DNA of 64,000 nt from Candidatus Bathyarchaeota archaeon. Lineage in GTDB: Archaea > Thermoproteota > Bathyarchaeia > Bathyarchaeales > Bathycorpusculaceae. The notes beneath the pieces were generated by a model. The model was not told the DNA's origin, did not search any database, and saw only the letters and a program-made list of their open reading frames with translations. This document shows, one piece after another, positions 2,312 to 37,285 of the stretch (positions are counted from its first letter, which is position 1; each line of letters begins with the position of its first letter). The stretch spans positions 192,001 through 256,000 of the forward strand of contig CAWHVC010000004.1 in the NCBI GenBank assembly GCA_963832745.1. The letters are read 5' to 3'. Position numbers and translations under genes: made by a program.

Positions 2312-2387
2312 GCTGGGGTGGCCGAATCGCTGAGGCGGTAGCCTGCAGAGCTGCTTTATATGGGTTCAATTCCCATCCCCAGCTCCA
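2312..2387 (+). tRNA. tRNA-Cys(GCA), intronless, CCA encoded
   Basis: Acceptor stem GCTGGGG/CCCCAGC; anticodon arm GTAGC-CTGCAGA-GCTGC (GCA at 2345-2347); T arm ATGGG-TTCAATT-CCCAT; U73 discriminator then CCA; AT-rich TATA-like element about 25 nt upstream. Confidence 0.95.
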
Positions 2388-30704: not shown

Positions 30705-32414
30705 CTATTTCGGAAGGGTGCCGAGTTTTGAGCGGGTTTGTGCAAGTTGCTCGTCAAGTTTTGCTTCGTCTGTTTCGATTTTGTGGAATAGCGGTGTGGG
30801 TTTAGCGATTTTGTGTCCTCCTTCAATTGGCACGGTAGCGTCACTCCATTTTGAAACGTTTCCTGGCAGTTGCAGTGTGTGCCATAGCTGTTCAGCGGTT
30901 TGTGGCATGAACGGTGCTGAAACGACGGTGCATGCTTTGACCACTTGTGCTGCAACATAGAATATTGTGCCTGCTTTCTCCTTGTCGGTCTTCATGAGGT
31001 TCCATGGTTCTTTGGTGTTAAGGTACTGGTTACCAATTCGGCTAATGCTGATGAGCGTAGTGGCGGCTGATTGTAGCCATCCGTCTTCAAATTCTTTAGC
31101 GGCTTGCTCAACCTTCGCTTTTACAGCGTCGAGAACTGCTTGGTCATCCGCCTCAAGCTTGGTTGGCGCTGGAATGGTACCTTCAAACTTGCTTGTGATA
31201 AACGAGAGTGTGCGGTGAATGAAGTTGCCAAAGGTGTCGTTTAGGTCATTGTTGATTTTGTCTGCAAAGGCGCTCCATGTGAAGTTAGTGTCTTTGCTTT
31301 CGGGGCGGGTTGCCATGAGGAAGAAGCGCCAGTAGTCCACTGGGAACATTTCTAAGGCTTCGTCTATCCAGATGCCGACACGTTGACTTTTAGAGGCTTT
31401 CTGGCCGCGGAACTGCAGGAATTCTGTCGCGGAAACGTTCCATGGCAGGTTGTAGCCTTGACCAGACGCCAACAGTAGCGCGGGCAGGATGATGGTGTGG
31501 AACGGAATGTTGTCTTTGCCTACAAAATAGAGTGTTTTAGCTTGGTTGTTTAGCCAGAACTCCCGCCATTTCTCAGGCTGTCCTAACTGTTGAGACCGCT
31601 CAATCGTTGCCGAAACGTAGCCCAGCACGGCGTCTACCCAAACGTAGATGGTTTTTCCTTCTGCGCCCTCAAACGGTGCAGGGATGCCCCAGTCAATGTC
31701 TCGGGTGACAGCTCGGGGTTTTAAGCCTTCTTTTATCCAGTTTAGGCTGAAACTTTTCACGTTAGCGGGCAGTTGCTGGTTAGTTTTAAGATACTCGGTT
31801 AAGGGTTCGGCGAGTTTGGAGAGGTCAATGTACCAGTGCTTGGTCGTTTTGACTATTGGCTTGTTTTTGCAAATTGTACAGTACGGTTCCACGAGCAGTG
31901 TGGGTTCAAGCAGTTTGCCGCATGCGTCACATTGGTCACCTCGGGCTTTCTCGCAGCCGCAGTAGGGACATTTGCCTTCCACGAAACGGTCAGGCAAGAA
32001 GCGTTGGTCATGTTCACAGTAGAGCATTTGGGTTTCTTGCTCGAAAATATAACCATTTCTTTGAATTTCAAGAAGCGTTTTTTGGACGAATTCCTTGTGA
32101 ACTGGGCTTTCAGTACAGGTGTAATTGTCATAGGAGGCGCCCCAGCGGCGGAAAAGTTCTGCAACTTTGGCGTGGTTGCGGTCTGTTAACTCTTTTGGGG
32201 TTATGCCCTGTTTTATGGCTTCCACTTCGATTGGGGTGCCATGTTCGTCTGAACCGCTGACAAACAGGACGTCGTCGCCTTTTAGTCGATAATAGCGTGC
32301 AGTGACATCCGCGGATAATACGGAGCCGACGAGGTTTCCAAGGTGCGGCGTCACGTTAATGTAAGGCCATGCTGAAGTAACTAAAACTTTATCTGGCAAA
32401 CTATGTGTCTCCAA
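30705..32414 (-). CDS. metG: Methionine--tRNA ligase (start approximate)
   Basis: TSAWPYIN..HLGN, GSDEHG, Zn knuckles, YVWVDA, GKDNIPFH, KASKS. Confidence 0.95.
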   Translation of the reverse strand: METHSLPDKVLVTSAWPYINVTPHLGNLVGSVLSADVTARYYRLKGDDVLFVSGSDEHGTPIEVEAIKQGITPKELTDRNHAKVAELFRRWGASYDNYTCTESPVHKEFVQKTLLEIQRNGYIFEQETQMLYCEHDQRFLPDRFVEGKCPYCGCEKARGDQCDACGKLLEPTLLVEPYCTICKNKPIVKTTKHWYIDLSKLAEPLTEYLKTNQQLPANVKSFSLNWIKEGLKPRAVTRDIDWGIPAPFEGAEGKTIYVWVDAVLGYVSATIERSQQLGQPEKWREFWLNNQAKTLYFVGKDNIPFHTIILPALLLASGQGYNLPWNVSATEFLQFRGQKASKSQRVGIWIDEALEMFPVDYWRFFLMATRPESKDTNFTWSAFADKINNDLNDTFGNFIHRTLSFITSKFEGTIPAPTKLEADDQAVLDAVKAKVEQAAKEFEDGWLQSAATTLISISRIGNQYLNTKEPWNLMKTDKEKAGTIFYVAAQVVKACTVVSAPFMPQTAEQLWHTLQLPGNVSKWSDATVPIEGGHKIAKPTPLFHKIETDEAKLDEQLAQTRSKLGTLPK

Positions 32415-32545
32415 CAAATCGTTAAGTCTCAACCTTATTAAAATTGCTATCCAAACAAAAAATTCAACTTTTAAGTGGTAATTAGCCAGCTGTTTGGCAA
32501 CGCTTAAATCCAGATTCAAAAATACATTTACATCAGGTCAAACTT

Positions 32546-33713: not shown

Positions 33714-33956
33714 TTGGCAGAAAGAAAAATTTCTAAACAAGAGTTAGAAGAAAATAATGGAAAAGAAGGTAAACCAGCATATTTTGCGTATAAAGGAAAA
33801 GTTTACGAAGCTACCGATAGTGCAATGTGGATGGATGGAGAACACATGGGCATGCATCAAGCCGGCAAAGACTTAACTGACGACATGGATATGGCGCCTC
33901 ACGGTCCAGAAAATGTTGAACGCGTAAAATACATCGGCGAATTAGCCGACTCCTAA
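33714..33956 (+). CDS. Cytochrome b5-like haem/steroid-binding protein
   Basis: NGKEGKPAYFAYKGKVYE..W..GEH..HQAGKDLT..APHG. Confidence 0.85.
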   Translation: MAERKISKQELEENNGKEGKPAYFAYKGKVYEATDSAMWMDGEHMGMHQAGKDLTDDMDMAPHGPENVERVKYIGELADS

Positions 33957-35194
33957 AACAGACACTGCAACACGCCATCAACCCGAAGCAAGTTCTCGGT
34001 TATTTTCTTTTTATCTTCAACACCAATTTTCTCTTTAAATCCTTCAAGTTCAATCATGGTTTCGTATAAGCTGTCAAAGGCTGTTTTTAAGTCTAAATTG
34101 TCATTCATGGCCTCTTCGAAACCTGAAACAATTTTTTCCACAAGCACTTTGACCTTTTCTGATTCCTGTTTACTGTTAGGCTCTGTCTTTTGTAGGTCAG
34201 CAATTTTCGCCTTTAAATTATCCAATTTTTTGGTTGTTTCGGCAAGCTTTTCAAAAGTGAAGTCCAACGTTTCCCTGTAGCAGCCGTAAATCAAAAAGAA
34301 TCTCATCTTTCCGCCACTGTAACCATTTGCTTGTAGATCTTTGGGGTAATACACGTTGCCTTTGCTTTTAGACATCTTTTCCCCATCCACGTACAGGTGG
34401 CCACCGTGAAGCCAGTAACGGGAAAACTGTCGCCCCGAAACCGACTCTACAACCGCAATAGTGTAATCATGATGCCTAACCAAATTGTCAACTCCACCAC
34501 AGGCAACATCAATCTCGAAACCCAAATGTTTAGTTACAATCGCTGGGTCCTGAACGTTCCAAGCTGGTCTGCCAGTACCGACAGGAGTTTTGTAGCAGAT
34601 GTCACTTTTTGGGCAGCCATGCCAAAGAATAAAGTCACCCATGTTCCAAGGTGTACCTGGATACGTGTCCTTATGGAATCTACGCCGTTTTTTTGGCCAT
34701 TTGCTCATGTCCAGATGCGCCAGTTTACCAAACCCTTCAAATTTAAGAGGGTCAAAATACACGTTTTCTTCTCCCTTGTAACAGTAATAATAGGCTGCTC
34801 CACAATCGACAAGTTTGGTGATAAGCATAGCCGCTTGGTCCACCGCCGTGGACGCCCTAACCGCGAAGTTAGGCGTTTTGATTCTCAGGAATTTAAAATC
34901 GTTAAAAAAAGTTTTTTCGTTTCGGCTTGATAGTTCCTCGACTGTAAGGTTTTCTTTTTTTGCTTGCTCGATGGCTTTGTCTTCCACATCGGTTAAAGTG
35001 ATTAGCCGCGTTACTTTGTAGCCTAAATATTCAAGGTACCTTTGCAGGATGTCTTCAAAAAGAAACGTGCGGTAGTTGCCAATGTGCGCTGGCTGATAAG
35101 TTGACGGCCCGCAAGTGTACATTTTAACTTGCCCTTCTTCTCTGGGTTTGAAGGGCTCAACTTTTTTGGTCAGGGTGTTGTAAATGTTTAGCAA
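33953..35194 (-). CDS. Cysteine--tRNA ligase-like protein (divergent, truncated paralog)
   Basis: YTCGP, HIGN, DFILW, GRPAW, KMSKS and DALR-type helices; no C-terminal anticodon-binding domain. Confidence 0.85.
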   Translation of the reverse strand: MLNIYNTLTKKVEPFKPREEGQVKMYTCGPSTYQPAHIGNYRTFLFEDILQRYLEYLGYKVTRLITLTDVEDKAIEQAKKENLTVEELSSRNEKTFFNDFKFLRIKTPNFAVRASTAVDQAAMLITKLVDCGAAYYYCYKGEENVYFDPLKFEGFGKLAHLDMSKWPKKRRRFHKDTYPGTPWNMGDFILWHGCPKSDICYKTPVGTGRPAWNVQDPAIVTKHLGFEIDVACGGVDNLVRHHDYTIAVVESVSGRQFSRYWLHGGHLYVDGEKMSKSKGNVYYPKDLQANGYSGGKMRFFLIYGCYRETLDFTFEKLAETTKKLDNLKAKIADLQKTEPNSKQESEKVKVLVEKIVSGFEEAMNDNLDLKTAFDSLYETMIELEGFKEKIGVEDKKKITENLLRVDGVLQCLF

Positions 35195-35211
35195 TACGGC
35201 GTGGTTCTCCG

Positions 35212-35688
35212 TTATGTGGCAGCGGCTTGTTGTGTCTCTATTTCTTTTAGGGCTTTTTCTGCTTCTTGTACGTGTTGTTCAGCGTGGGTTTGGCTCTCAA
35301 AAATGCTGCGGACAATGCCTTGCTTGTCGATGACGTAGGTGACTCTACCTGGAACGATTCCCATAGTTGAATGCACCCCATATAGTTCCCTAACCTTGTG
35401 GTCAGCATCGCTTAACAGGATAAAGGGTAAACCATAATGAGTGGCAAATTTCATGTGAGATTCGATGCTTTGGCTGCTAACGCCGAGCACTTCTGCTCCT
35501 AGACTTGTTAATTCTTGGTAGTTGTCGCGGAAACTGCAGGCTTCTTTGGTGCAGCCCGGTGATTCATCTTTAGGATAAAAATACAGGACAATATTTTTTT
35601 TGCCAAGAAACTCTGAGAGGGTTACGTTGTCGCCCATTTGGGATGGAAGCGTAAAATCGGGTGCTTTATCGCCTACTTTAACAGCCAA
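35212..35688 (-). CDS. bcp: Peroxiredoxin Q/BCP
   Basis: [16 protein letters not shown]. Confidence 0.92.
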
Positions 35689-35804
35689 AAAATTTCACCA
35701 CAAACAAAAAGCCACTGTCAGCTATTATCTTTTTCGCAGATTATAAAATGGCAAATAGGGTTTTTAAGCGTCATCAGTGTTAACCAAAACATAGGCAGAT
35801 CCTT

Positions 35805-36410
35805 ATGGAAAAAAAGTTATCCTTAAACGGTTACAAATGCCCCGCACTTGTAAATAAGGTGCCCGGTGTTCCAATAGTTTTCTTGCATGGTTTATCTTAT
35901 AACATTGAAATCTGGAACCGAATCGGCATAACTGATGTTCTTGACGAAAAACATGTACCCTACCTTGCTTTAGACATGCCATACGGCGAGAAAAGCCAAT
36001 GCAAACCAAAAACTCGTGACCCAGAAAAAAACGTAACCTTCGTCTATGAGGCTATAGAAAACGTTTTTGGAGGTCCATTACCTCCTGTTCTGGTTGGCGC
36101 AAGCATCGGCGGTAACATGGCGCTTCATTTTGCTTCCCGATTTCCGGTGAAGGGGCTCGTGCTTGTTGGTCCTGCCCGGGCGCTCGAAGAAGATTTAGTG
36201 CATGCTTACGGCAGCTTTAAGTTTCCGTCAACCATTATTTGGGGTTCTGAAGACACCATAATTGCCAGCGAAAACATGCGGACCTTGGCTGACAAGTTGC
36301 CGAATTCTAAACTGATTGTCTATCAGGGCGCGAAGCATTCAGCTTACAAGGATGAACCAGACAGGTTCAAACGTGACTTGTTGGAGCTTTACATTAACGC
36401 TGAAATTTAA
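35805..36410 (+). CDS. Alpha/beta hydrolase
   Basis: FLHG, GASIGG nucleophile elbow, WGSED, AKH. Confidence 0.85.
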   Translation: MEKKLSLNGYKCPALVNKVPGVPIVFLHGLSYNIEIWNRIGITDVLDEKHVPYLALDMPYGEKSQCKPKTRDPEKNVTFVYEAIENVFGGPLPPVLVGASIGGNMALHFASRFPVKGLVLVGPARALEEDLVHAYGSFKFPSTIIWGSEDTIIASENMRTLADKLPNSKLIVYQGAKHSAYKDEPDRFKRDLLELYINAEI

Positions 36411-36973
36411 AGGCCTTTTCTTGCCAGTACCAAGTAATGGTAGGGTCCAACATCAAAGCTGCATTGAACCATTAAACCGTGTGAACGCATCATGTTAGTC
36501 ACGGTTACTTCATCAAATTTAATGTCCAACGGTGGACCCACCGGTATTTCTTCTTTCTTCCAGTCTAAATCAGCAACGATGCCATCCATTTTTAACATGT
36601 CCCTCGCGTTAGACAGAACTTGTTCAGGATAATCAAAATCGTGCAAGTCCATGCTAAAGAACACAATGTCGGCGCAGTTTTTGCAGAAAACCGTTTCCTC
36701 TGCTTTGCCCGCGGTTGCAGTGATGTTGTTGTAGCCTTCTTCTTTGGCTCTCTTTTGAATTTTCTCAATTGACTTTGGGTCAATATCGACTGCGTAGACT
36801 TTGCCTTTTTCGCCTACAATTTTTGCCGCTAAAAAGGTGAAATAGCCATCGCCGCAGCCTACGTCAACAAAAGTCATGCCTTCCCCTAGTTCAACCGCTT
36901 CTAAGATATCGTCCGGATTATACCATGAACGCCGTTTAGCCTCATCTAAGCTGAATCCACCATGACAAACCAT
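36407..36973 (-). CDS. Class I SAM-dependent methyltransferase
   Basis: DVGCGDG motif I, VYAVDID. Confidence 0.85.
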   Translation of the reverse strand: MVCHGGFSLDEAKRRSWYNPDDILEAVELGEGMTFVDVGCGDGYFTFLAAKIVGEKGKVYAVDIDPKSIEKIQKRAKEEGYNNITATAGKAEETVFCKNCADIVFFSMDLHDFDYPEQVLSNARDMLKMDGIVADLDWKKEEIPVGPPLDIKFDEVTVTNMMRSHGLMVQCSFDVGPYHYLVLARKGL

Positions 36974-36985
36974 AACATTGCCTCT

Positions 36986-37285
36986 TTACTGTTGTCCAAG
37001 CATTTCCTTAATTTGCTTTTCGTGGGTTTGCCTGGTTGTTAACGGGTAAATTTCTCGTTCGCACTCAAAGAACAGTGGGTCTTGCCCAATAATTTTTGGG
37101 AGTGCCTCGTCAGATTCAGCGTTAACGATTAGCATGCTGCCTTGATGCCCAATCAGGTGATAGCATGATTCTAAAGTTTTGGCTTTTTCTAAGGATTCAA
37201 AATATCGGAATTGTAACGGTAAAAACCGTGACCATTTTTCTAGGGGAACTTCACGTTTTACTTTTTGAATAATCAAGAATTTCAT
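36986..37285 (-). CDS. Muconolactone isomerase-like/DUF3303 dimeric barrel protein
   Basis: MKFLI..GSMLIVNAESDEAL..DPLF..EIYPL pattern; GGAGGT SD. Confidence 0.55.
   Translation of the reverse strand: MKFLIIQKVKREVPLEKWSRFLPLQFRYFESLEKAKTLESCYHLIGHQGSMLIVNAESDEALPKIIGQDPLFFECEREIYPLTTRQTHEKQIKEMLGQQ

Follow-up and report, generated by a model that had tools for sequence, protein, structure and literature searches.

A cysteinyl-tRNA synthetase paralogue with a rebuilt amino-acid pocket and no anticodon domain in archaea and bacteria

The locus and its CysRS-like gene

We analyzed a 64,000-nucleotide (nt) stretch of DNA of a Candidatus Bathyarchaeota archaeon (assembly GCA_963832745.1, contig CAWHVC010000004.1, positions 192,001 to 256,000 of the forward strand; hereafter, the window). 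Directly downstream of a peroxiredoxin gene, bcp, the minus strand encodes a protein of 413 amino acids (aa) that is a paralogue of cysteinyl-tRNA synthetase (CysRS) and belongs to a family that we refer to as WNxQD/RHHDY after its altered motifs. The gene and the motifs on which the analysis turns are the following:

33953..35194, minus strand: coding sequence of the CysRS paralogue, 413 aa, TTG start, taken from the list of open reading frames (ORFs)
35111..35113, minus strand: Cys28, a retained metal-ligand position, invariant in the family
35075..35086, minus strand: HIGN signature, residues 37-40, intact
34643..34702, minus strand: rebuilt CP1 loop KWPKKRRRFHKDTYPGTPWN, residues 165-184, basic, near-invariant across archaea and bacteria, with low predicted local confidence (pLDDT)
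34547..34561, minus strand: WNVQD, residues 212-216, in place of WHIEC (H206N, E208Q and C209D in E. coli numbering)
34460..34477, minus strand: RHHDYT, residues 240-245, in place of PHHENE (P233R, E236D and N237Y; the E238 position is variable)
34364..34378, minus strand: KMSKS loop, residues 273-277, intact

The protein comprises the Rossmann catalytic domain, the CP domain, the stem-contact fold and the helical bundle, and the C-terminal anticodon domain is absent. It matched the Pfam CysRS catalytic domain (PF01406, E=1.9e-72) over residues 15-321. The motif coordinates were checked by exact translation, which reproduced the C-terminus (...DGVLQCLF) and the stop at 33953. Translation also confirmed that HIGN and KMSKS are intact, as stated in an earlier note on this DNA made from its sequence alone; the canonical CysRS of the same genome likewise carries HIGN. 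The database gene call for this ORF (P0001) begins at M25 and covers 389 aa. We consider the TTG start to be the correct one because the homologues and E. coli CysRS align from residue 1.

A second CysRS-like gene beside a canonical cysS

The genome that contains the window (contig C4:192001-256000) amounts to 3.02 Mb in 5 contigs and is 99% complete. Scanning it with the CysRS equivalog profile TIGR00435 gave two matches. A full-length cysS at C2:390539-391930 scored 491.9 bits against a cut-off of 340, covered model positions 1-465 and encodes a 472-aa protein with GRPGWHIEC and FPHHENE, whereas the window gene scored 312.3-313.1 bits, below the cut-off; the two products are 35% identical. 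Neither SepRS (best score 53.4 bits vs cut-off 380.65) nor SepCysS (37.8 bits vs 365.25) was found in the genome. The canonical copy bears out the paralogue status that the earlier note had proposed, and with SepRS and SepCysS missing as well, we rejected the idea that the window gene is the sole CysRS or that Cys-tRNA is made there by the indirect route. Similarly, we tested five genomes from other taxa that carry the paralogue: a canonical cysS above the cut-off was present in four (a delta, a Spirochaete, a Nitrospirota and a Bathyarchaeum), and the fifth had a partial match of 314.6 bits at the edge of a contig.

ARAGORN predicted 47 tRNA genes in the genome, including a single tRNA-Cys(GCA) with an ordinary cloverleaf and U73:

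2312..2387, plus strand: tRNA-Cys(GCA), about 31 kb from the paralogue in the same window

Two other calls were odd and unlinked to the paralogue: a doubtful 76-nt 'tRNA-Ser(ACU)' without a long variable arm (C1:545171-545246), and an 86-nt tRNA, in all probability a tRNA-Leu read wrongly, whose 'anticodon' has two bases (C5:85211-85296). Another ACU call lies about 2.5 kb upstream of the paralogue in a different genome, G007 (L046:5412-5535).

A rebuilt pocket on a conserved fold

A HMMER alignment to E. coli CysRS (1li5) placed GRPAWNVQD against GRPGWHIEC and VRHHDYT against FPHHENE, in agreement with the replacements listed in the earlier note. The zinc ligands of E. coli CysRS are C28, C209, H234 and E238; at these positions, the window protein retains C28 and H234, together with W205 and H235, and has D at C209 and T at E238. 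The protein terminates at the equivalent of E. coli L391/G392, and its TIGR00435 match stops at model position 399 of 466 (positions 1-399), from which we conclude that the C-terminal anticodon domain is absent; the end after the helical bundle had been read correctly in the earlier note. The conserved anticodon-domain residues R423, D436, G446 and D451 have no counterpart. In CysRS, this domain is a major identity reader of tRNA-Cys.

Based on an AlphaFold2 model obtained with 33 family members (pLDDT 89.0, pTM 0.90), Foldseek gave TM-scores of 0.88 to 8qhp, 0.86 to the CysRS-tRNA complex 1u0b, whose C-terminal part was unmatched, and 0.80-0.83 to structures of MshC, a CysRS paralogue discussed below (0.83 to 8hfn). 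Compared with canonical CysRS (TIGR00435; 1li5/1u0b and 8qhp), the window protein keeps the fold, including the stem-contact fold and helical bundle, HIGN, KMSKS and residues C28, G29, T68, D69, W205, H234 and H235, but it falls below the equivalog cut-off, lacks the anticodon domain, carries six pocket changes and a basic CP1 loop, and has an incomplete C28/C209/H234/E238 zinc site, of which C28 and H234 remain.

To describe these differences at the family level, we compared 71 members of the family with 65 further CysRS sequences in E. coli numbering. The same conserved residue occupied 56 positions in both groups, including C28, G29, H37, G39, N40, R42, T68, D69, D72, K73, W205, H234, H235, K266, M267, S268, K269 and N273; of these, G29, T68, D69 and W205 are presumably contacts of the alpha-amino group and side chain. 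Ten positions were conserved in both groups yet different between them, namely T31S, D71E, Y152F, G166K, H206N, E208Q, C209D, P233R, E236D and N237Y. Additionally, conservation was lost in the family at H224, E238, Q241 and S242, which are invariant or near-invariant in canonical enzymes: the Q241 position is always I, V or T, and the S242 position is hydrophobic. In the numbering of the window protein, the pocket residues fixed in the family are N213, Q215, D216, R240, D243 and Y244. At the level of sequence, this contrast showed that two metal-ligand positions, C28 and H234, are kept, and that the remaining side-chain and metal pocket is replaced in a fixed way.

The earlier note had counted two of the four zinc ligands as changed. 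Both do differ in the window protein, but only the C209 to D change is invariant (71/71 family rows), while the E238 position is variable (T in 28 of the 71, N in 26, I in 8, and others). Since MshC also lacks E238 (its motif reads HHEYS), one zinc-ligand change is unusual, not two.

Six pocket residues that changed together, among them a new Arg and a new Tyr, suggest an altered preference for the side chain or the metal. The earlier note had proposed a different substrate. Asp can bind zinc, and some CysRS-like proteins of full length (P0239, P0247, P0250) also have D in place of C209, which weakens that part of the proposal. Among CysRS-like representatives, D209 was seen in P0239, P0247, P0250, P0162, P0192 and P0157, mostly proteins of 455-462 aa (858 aa in P0157); some have HHEAE without a nearby Cys, and others have Cys at position 237 (HHECE or HHECV); the zinc thiolate seems to have been moved or lost naturally in these proteins.

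The same observations bear on a stress-proof backup CysRS, that is, an enzyme that makes Cys-tRNA-Cys with a Cys/Asp/His site that, having one thiolate fewer, could withstand the oxidants or zinc shortage by which the Zn(Cys)2 site of the housekeeping enzyme is disabled. The D209 proteins and the coexistence with a canonical copy, in this genome and in the four others, are compatible with such a role. Nevertheless, we regard it as unlikely, given that the pocket changes go beyond the thiolate, the anticodon domain that reads tRNA-Cys is missing, and H224, Q241 and S242 are lost.

Conservation, selection and distribution of the family

Relatives with WNVQD/HHDY were collected with their neighbours and form a conserved family whose gene neighbours are lineage-specific. 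The motif set comprised 131 sequences, i.e., the best 120 database relatives (66-100% identical, 388-437 aa) and 11 copies from related genomes. GRP[AS]WN[IVLM]QD was present in 129 of them, HHDY in 130, H[ILV]GN in 130 and KMSKS in 125; the substitutions, whose conservation the earlier note had left open, are therefore near-invariant. By the Nei-Gojobori method, the ratio of nonsynonymous to synonymous substitution rates (dN/dS) was 0.06-0.13 in the 8 of 12 tried pairs with estimable dS, values that are rough, with dS of about 1 or more.

We computed a maximum-likelihood tree from 140 rows by a quick search under LG+G4 (MshC and the bacterial CysRS* described below were not included). The 71 family rows formed one clade with no outside row within it (SH-aLRT 100, stem length 0.40). 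The nearest outside rows were two short Micrarchaeota proteins. P0176 (405 aa) is a half-way form, family-like at N206, Q208, T238 and V241 and canonical at C209, E236 and N237, while P0140 (Micrarchaeia, 413 aa, annotated as cysteine--tRNA ligase) keeps all the canonical residues without an anticodon domain. Both are single long branches, and no order of events rests on them. Bacterial and archaeal members interleave within the clade, which implies transfer between the domains.

The distribution of the family in Bathyarchaeia is patchy, with matches of at least 50% identity in 11 of the 201 species genomes sampled and a split copy in addition. A scan with one genome per GTDB species gave 86 relatives, of which 80 were kept; judged by record title, these are mostly Bathyarchaeia. 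Members from other taxa, at 44-52% identity, come from metagenome-assembled genomes (MAGs) of Methanofastidiosia/'Thermococci'/Methanobacteriota, from Nitrospirota/Thermodesulfovibrionales and Spirochaetes, and from Syntrophobacteraceae/'delta proteobacterium' MAGs; a few record titles, e.g., Acidoferrum, resemble mis-binned Bathyarchaeia contigs. When 1.84 billion cluster representatives were scanned, 17 of the best 150 had RHHDY (40-67% identical, several of them fragments), and the remainder were ordinary CysRS with WHxEC/HHENE. Two family-specific peptide patterns matched at least 598 metagenome stretches, at least 554 of which were confirmed, and the family is abundant in wetland, peat and sediment metagenomes. 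Among the neighbours of one homologue in the ESM Atlas is a cluster of 190 members, commonest in Spirochaetota, named 'class I tRNA ligase family protein'; in public records, members carry this name or, wrongly, 'cysteinyl-tRNA synthetase'.

Decay was rejected on the grounds of the near-invariant substitutions, the dN/dS of about 0.1 and the single well-supported clade. More generally, a non-functional or non-catalytic duplicate, either a gene about to become a pseudogene or one for a scaffold protein, would fit the patchy occurrence (about 12 of 201 sampled Bathyarchaeia genomes), the clean loss of the gene from one genome of the genus and the 17 of 80 loci that lack an intact full-length ORF. 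We consider this explanation very improbable because, besides the selection and the near-invariant catalytic motifs in the 131 sequences, the family has been kept in both archaea and bacteria, metagenomes contain at least 554 copies of it, and many of the interrupted copies come from the MFD assembly series and may be assembly errors.

The basic CP1 loop and an RNA-directed alternative

The CP1 loop of CysRS contacts the acceptor end of tRNA. In the family, W166, P167, R172, H174, D176, Y178, W183 and N184 of this loop are invariant in a Bathyarchaeia-centred alignment, and the loop is also conserved in the bacterial and other archaeal members. The confidence of the AlphaFold2 model is lowest here (pLDDT 52-73), which suggests a flexible, mobile loop. 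The net charge of the CP domain is +6.2 (standard deviation 2.7) in the family vs -0.6 (3.2) in other CysRS, and that of the stem-contact fold is +6.2 vs +3.6; the median isoelectric point (pI) is 9.0 vs 6.2.

These properties raise the alternative that the enzyme is directed to RNA and either charges a tRNA through the acceptor stem only, as CysRS* would, or modifies a tRNA or rRNA nucleoside, as GluQRS does, with the basic CP1 loop compensating for the lost domain. It is favoured by the raised charge and pI, by the canonical-conserved residues retained outside the pocket, and by the example of P0140, a protein annotated as cysteine--tRNA ligase that has no anticodon domain and all the canonical ligands. 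Conversely, no tRNA or selB-like gene is linked to the paralogue, the genome has a single, ordinary tRNA-Cys(GCA), and the lost H224, Q241 and S242 are near-invariant in tRNA-charging CysRS and also lost in MshC. Moreover, the amino-acid pocket is rebuilt, and we know of no report of such rebuilding for CysRS* or GluQRS. On balance, we regard an RNA-directed enzyme as somewhat unlikely, although it is the most probable of the alternatives.

Gene neighbourhood

The features that surround the paralogue in the window are as follows:

35195..35211, minus strand: spacer from the bcp stop to the paralogue start, 17 nt, containing GGAG
35212..35688, minus strand: BCP/PrxQ-type peroxiredoxin gene (bcp), 158 aa, with a PGCTKEAC motif, upstream of the paralogue
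35741..35747, minus strand: TTTATAA, resembling a TATA box and located some 55 nt before the bcp start, recognized from sequence only
33714..33956, plus strand: cytochrome b5-like ORF, 80 aa (PF00173, E=1.7e-08)

The 158-aa protein matched PF00578 (AhpC/TSA, E=3.6e-40), and its best NCBIfam model was the thioredoxin-dependent thiol peroxidase, at 115.6 bits vs a cut-off of 140. A second bcp-like gene of the genome (C1:363656-364096), 61% identical to that of the window, has an in-frame TAA and may be a pseudogene. The ORF coordinates place the paralogue 17 nt downstream of bcp on the same strand, as the earlier note had it. Since this spacer (CGGAGAACCACGCCGTA on the coding strand) leaves no room for a separate promoter, bcp and the paralogue would be co-transcribed, with TTTATAA as a possible promoter for both.

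We searched 31 genomes of the genus of the window with its peroxiredoxin and found 21 loci with a bcp orthologue of at least 69% identity; in 20 of them the paralogue follows directly, with a broken paralogue frame in three and a broken bcp in a fourth. The apparent operon with a peroxiredoxin is therefore a real adjacency, but it is conserved only in one Bathyarchaeia lineage. The cytochrome b5-like ORF, which converges on the paralogue with a 4-nt overlap at the stop codon of the latter, is likewise syntenic in 29 loci of this same lineage only and absent elsewhere. Further upstream, a gene for a 99-aa protein of unknown family (36986..37285, minus strand) and a methyltransferase-like gene (36407..36973, minus strand, 188 aa) form a block with a hydrolase gene, bcp and the paralogue that is conserved throughout the lineage (c1, 33 loci; c3, 31 loci). 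Another class I synthetase-family gene, a 604-aa MetRS-like ORF, lies 1.4 kb from the paralogue (30705..32519, minus strand), with synteny in some genomes of the genus (cluster cl15).

Other lineages show other neighbours. In another Bathyarchaeia genus and in G007 (12 loci), a DinB-like Y-family polymerase gene lies 11-15 nt downstream or overlaps by 13 nt. Four Methanofastidiosia-like loci have the order HAD-like phosphatase, paralogue, HD-domain protein (4-11 nt downstream) and exonuclease III; the HD and exonuclease III pair was counted as a neighbour at 3 loci. A MATE transporter gene is located upstream in 7 Nitrospirota loci, and a CNNM/CorC transporter gene in 13 loci of a delta-proteobacterial/peat lineage, with an OsmC-hydrolase fusion nearby. 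At individual loci, the first or second neighbours encode Fe/Mn superoxide dismutase (L178, L182), thioredoxin (L079, L178, L206), OsmC (L089, L173, L190), a pyridine-nucleotide disulfide oxidoreductase (L186) and another AhpC/TSA protein (L223). Further neighbours include SbcCD-like genes (L100, L201) and genes for a methylpurine glycosylase (L118), a photolyase-related protein (L216), a universal stress protein (L172) and Hsp20 (L219). LigT and Mut7-C RNase genes also occur; together with DinB and Xth, these RNA- or DNA-handling neighbours are consistent with the RNA-directed alternative.

According to BLAST matches in 153 loci, antioxidant genes were found at rank 1 from the paralogue in 37 of 285 cases vs 2 of 609 at rank 5 or beyond, and DNA repair genes in 17 of 285 vs 1 of 609, an enrichment that is overstated and serves as a pointer only, as the references were picked from the neighbours themselves and the loci are often close kin. 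A single bcp lineage accounts for 31 of the 37 rank-1 antioxidant matches. What remains is that antioxidant or damage-repair genes adjoin the paralogue in at least five lineages with differing gene orders. These neighbours would also suit a backup CysRS exposed to oxidants.

No consistently linked tRNA gene was found: of 91 loci, 7 contain tRNA genes, 8 in total, and these differ in identity. No selB-like gene cluster was present among the paralogue loci, and none of the zinc-starvation genes folE2, dksA2, COG0523/zigA and Zur was present among the neighbours. A zinc transporter gene is near the paralogue at one locus only (L076).

Comparison with known CysRS paralogues

MshC is the cysteine:GlcN-Ins ligase of mycothiol synthesis, with a role in redox defence. 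Like the window protein, MshC (TIGR03447; 3c8z, 8hfm) is a CysRS paralogue without an anticodon domain, of 413-414 aa. Over E. coli residues 196-275, the range of the residue comparison, both have Y at 237 and S or T at 238 (HH-x-Y-[ST]), and both have lost H224, Q241 and S242, where MshC has Q, H and A, respectively. Six of the seven departures of MshC from the canonical-conserved residues of this range are common to the family, with about 3.6 expected by chance. These shared losses point to a tRNA-independent acceptor, but they are suggestive only. On the other hand, MshC keeps GRPGWHVEC and FPHHEYS, with a Cys/Cys/His site, where the window protein has GRPAWNVQD and VRHHDYT, and the MshC-type clusters of the ESM Atlas belong to Actinomycetota.

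Architecture, length, the HH-x-Y-[ST] motif and a fold similarity of 0.80-0.83 would be expected of an MshC orthologue that ligates cysteine to GlcN-Ins. Against TIGR03447, however, the window protein scored 186.5-188.6 bits, far under the cut-off of 485.1 and lower than the canonical CysRS of its own genome (243.9), and neither MshA (best 130.4 bits vs cut-off 462.5) nor MshB (20.5 bits vs 224.35) was found in the genome. With WHVEC and FPHH also missing from the family, MshC identity and a mycothiol pathway were rejected, and we assign them practically no weight. The recurrence of antioxidant neighbours in several lineages gives some backing to a redox link; as to the thiol or cofactor pathway suggested in the earlier note, the genome has no mycothiol-type pathway.

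CysRS* of Desulfobacterales, as described by Mukai et al. (PMC5389517), is a second cysS copy without an anticodon domain that is thought to charge cysteine on tRNA; cysS* lies directly downstream of selC*, encoding tRNA-Cys(UCA), and selB*, and CP1 is the region altered, its motif being PTVS. The window gene resembles it as an extra cysS copy with no anticodon domain and an altered CP1, with a motif that differs from PTVS. Unlike cysS*, it has no selC*/selB* linkage, and its side-chain pocket is rebuilt, in a comparison made with the published description of CysRS*.

GluQRS (YadB) is a shortened paralogue of GluRS and attaches glutamate to the queuosine of tRNA-Asp, according to a review (PMC9437257). 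It shares with the window protein the origin from a class I synthetase and the missing anticodon domain, and because it acts on RNA it is a model for an RNA acceptor; its parent synthetase, in contrast, is GluRS. A table in the same review lists CysRS* and MshC as the only CysRS paralogues, and we found no description of the WNxQD/RHHDY family in the literature searched, supplements aside.

Extra CysRS genes tied to a stress regulon are a precedent for a backup enzyme. CysS2 of Cupriavidus metallidurans is encoded in the Zur-controlled cobW1 operon and is a second CysRS expressed under zinc starvation (PMC10882993). Similarly, we observed a cysS in a zinc-starvation-type island of a Klebsiella pneumoniae plasmid (NZ_CP090243.1, 153202-162575; L160), together with genes for a carbonate dehydratase, folE2, dksA, a COG0523-type GTP-binding protein, a putative repressor and zigA; the cysS lies between the repressor gene and folE2, dksA, the GTPase gene and zigA. 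On Klebsiella plasmids, cysS hits were obtained in 503 records. The window gene, like CysS2, is an extra gene beside a housekeeping copy. Nevertheless, it is not located in a zinc-starvation island, and it is truncated, with non-canonical motifs. The Klebsiella plasmid protein is full length (460 aa) and keeps canonical GRPGWHIEC, HHENE and KMSKS, and it therefore represents a different solution from that of the family. This difference, along with the single locus with a zinc transporter gene, adds to the case against a backup CysRS.

Proposed function

The best explanation of these results is that the window gene encodes a working accessory enzyme of the CysRS-derived WNxQD/RHHDY family, neither a housekeeping CysRS nor a decaying copy. 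Judged from its sequences, the family is a putative synthetase-derived ligase set apart by the rebuilt pocket and the basic CP1 loop. As to its activity, our tentative proposal, which we hold a little short of probable, is a tRNA-independent, stress-linked adenylating ligase with altered side-chain or metal specificity. Such an enzyme would form the aminoacyl-adenylate of cysteine or a close analogue. A metal bound by C28, H241 and the new D216 in a Cys/Asp/His site would read the amino acid; the invariance of these residues was computed, and their metal-ligand roles are those that we take over from E. coli CysRS. The amino acid would then be passed to an anionic acceptor chosen by the CP1 loop rather than by an anticodon, in a role in defence against oxidative or damage stress in anaerobes.

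The nature of the acceptor is where this proposal and the RNA-directed alternative diverge. The fact that MshC shows the same losses, and that no tRNA gene is linked, inclines us to a small molecule or nucleotide, while the basic surface and the retained tRNA-side architecture incline us to RNA. By analogy with MshC, a tRNA-independent acceptor (small molecule or nucleotide) appears slightly favoured. For the tRNA independence suggested in the earlier note, the absence of the anticodon domain is no proof, because the Micrarchaeia 413-aa protein and CysRS* also lack that domain.

Several observations weigh against our proposal. The basic CP1 loop, the stem-contact fold, the helical bundle and the almost complete set of canonical residues outside the pocket fit an RNA acceptor equally well. 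Asp is a good zinc ligand, and together with the D209 full-length CysRS-like proteins, this means that cysteine may still be the substrate. In genome G102 (locus L131), the paralogue has been cleanly lost, with bcp, the cytochrome b5-like ORF and the hydrolase gene kept, which indicates that the paralogue is dispensable and that bcp is independent of it. No partner gene conserved across lineages was found in 11 + 80 + 80 loci, and the neighbourhood enrichment is a pointer only, for the reasons given above. No fused form was found among 5794 candidates, which is weak evidence; the single hit was a 36%-identical protein with additional Pfam domains, recognized by identity alone. Seven of 12 Spirochaete members have a pI below 7.4 (5.7-7.3), and a basic whole protein is therefore not universal in the family. 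Finally, 17 of the 80 genome loci have no intact ORF of at least 395 aa, some being cut by contig ends and some interrupted, and some of them may be real losses. Copies split by frameshifts or stops were seen at L112, L122, L124, L126, L127, L128, L081, L138, L145 and L146; the majority belong to a single assembly series, in which the isolate names start with MFD, and may thus be assembly errors rather than pseudogenes.

A bolder form of the proposal is that the family is a new kind of aminoacylating enzyme with which anaerobes respond to oxidative stress, and in which the Cys/Asp/His site would activate an amino acid other than cysteine and load it onto an anionic acceptor gripped by CP1. Possible substrates would then include oxidised, seleno- and hydroxy-analogues; the acceptor might be the end of an RNA, a nucleotide or the phosphorylated sugar of a low-molecular-weight thiol or cofactor, and the chemistry could have spread by transfer between archaea and bacteria. 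Taken jointly, these elements make up a speculative and rather doubtful picture.

Implications

Synthetase paralogues outside translation, such as MshC, GluQRS, the amino acid:carrier-protein ligases and CysRS*, have opened new biochemistry. The rebuilt amino-acid and metal pocket sets the WNxQD/RHHDY family apart from the known CysRS paralogues compared here, and annotations that count the gene as a second CysRS would be corrected. Identifying the substrate could bring to light a new thiol or cofactor, a new RNA modification, or a new way in which strict anaerobes cope with oxidants, and a family that purifying selection maintains in both archaea and bacteria is worth study.

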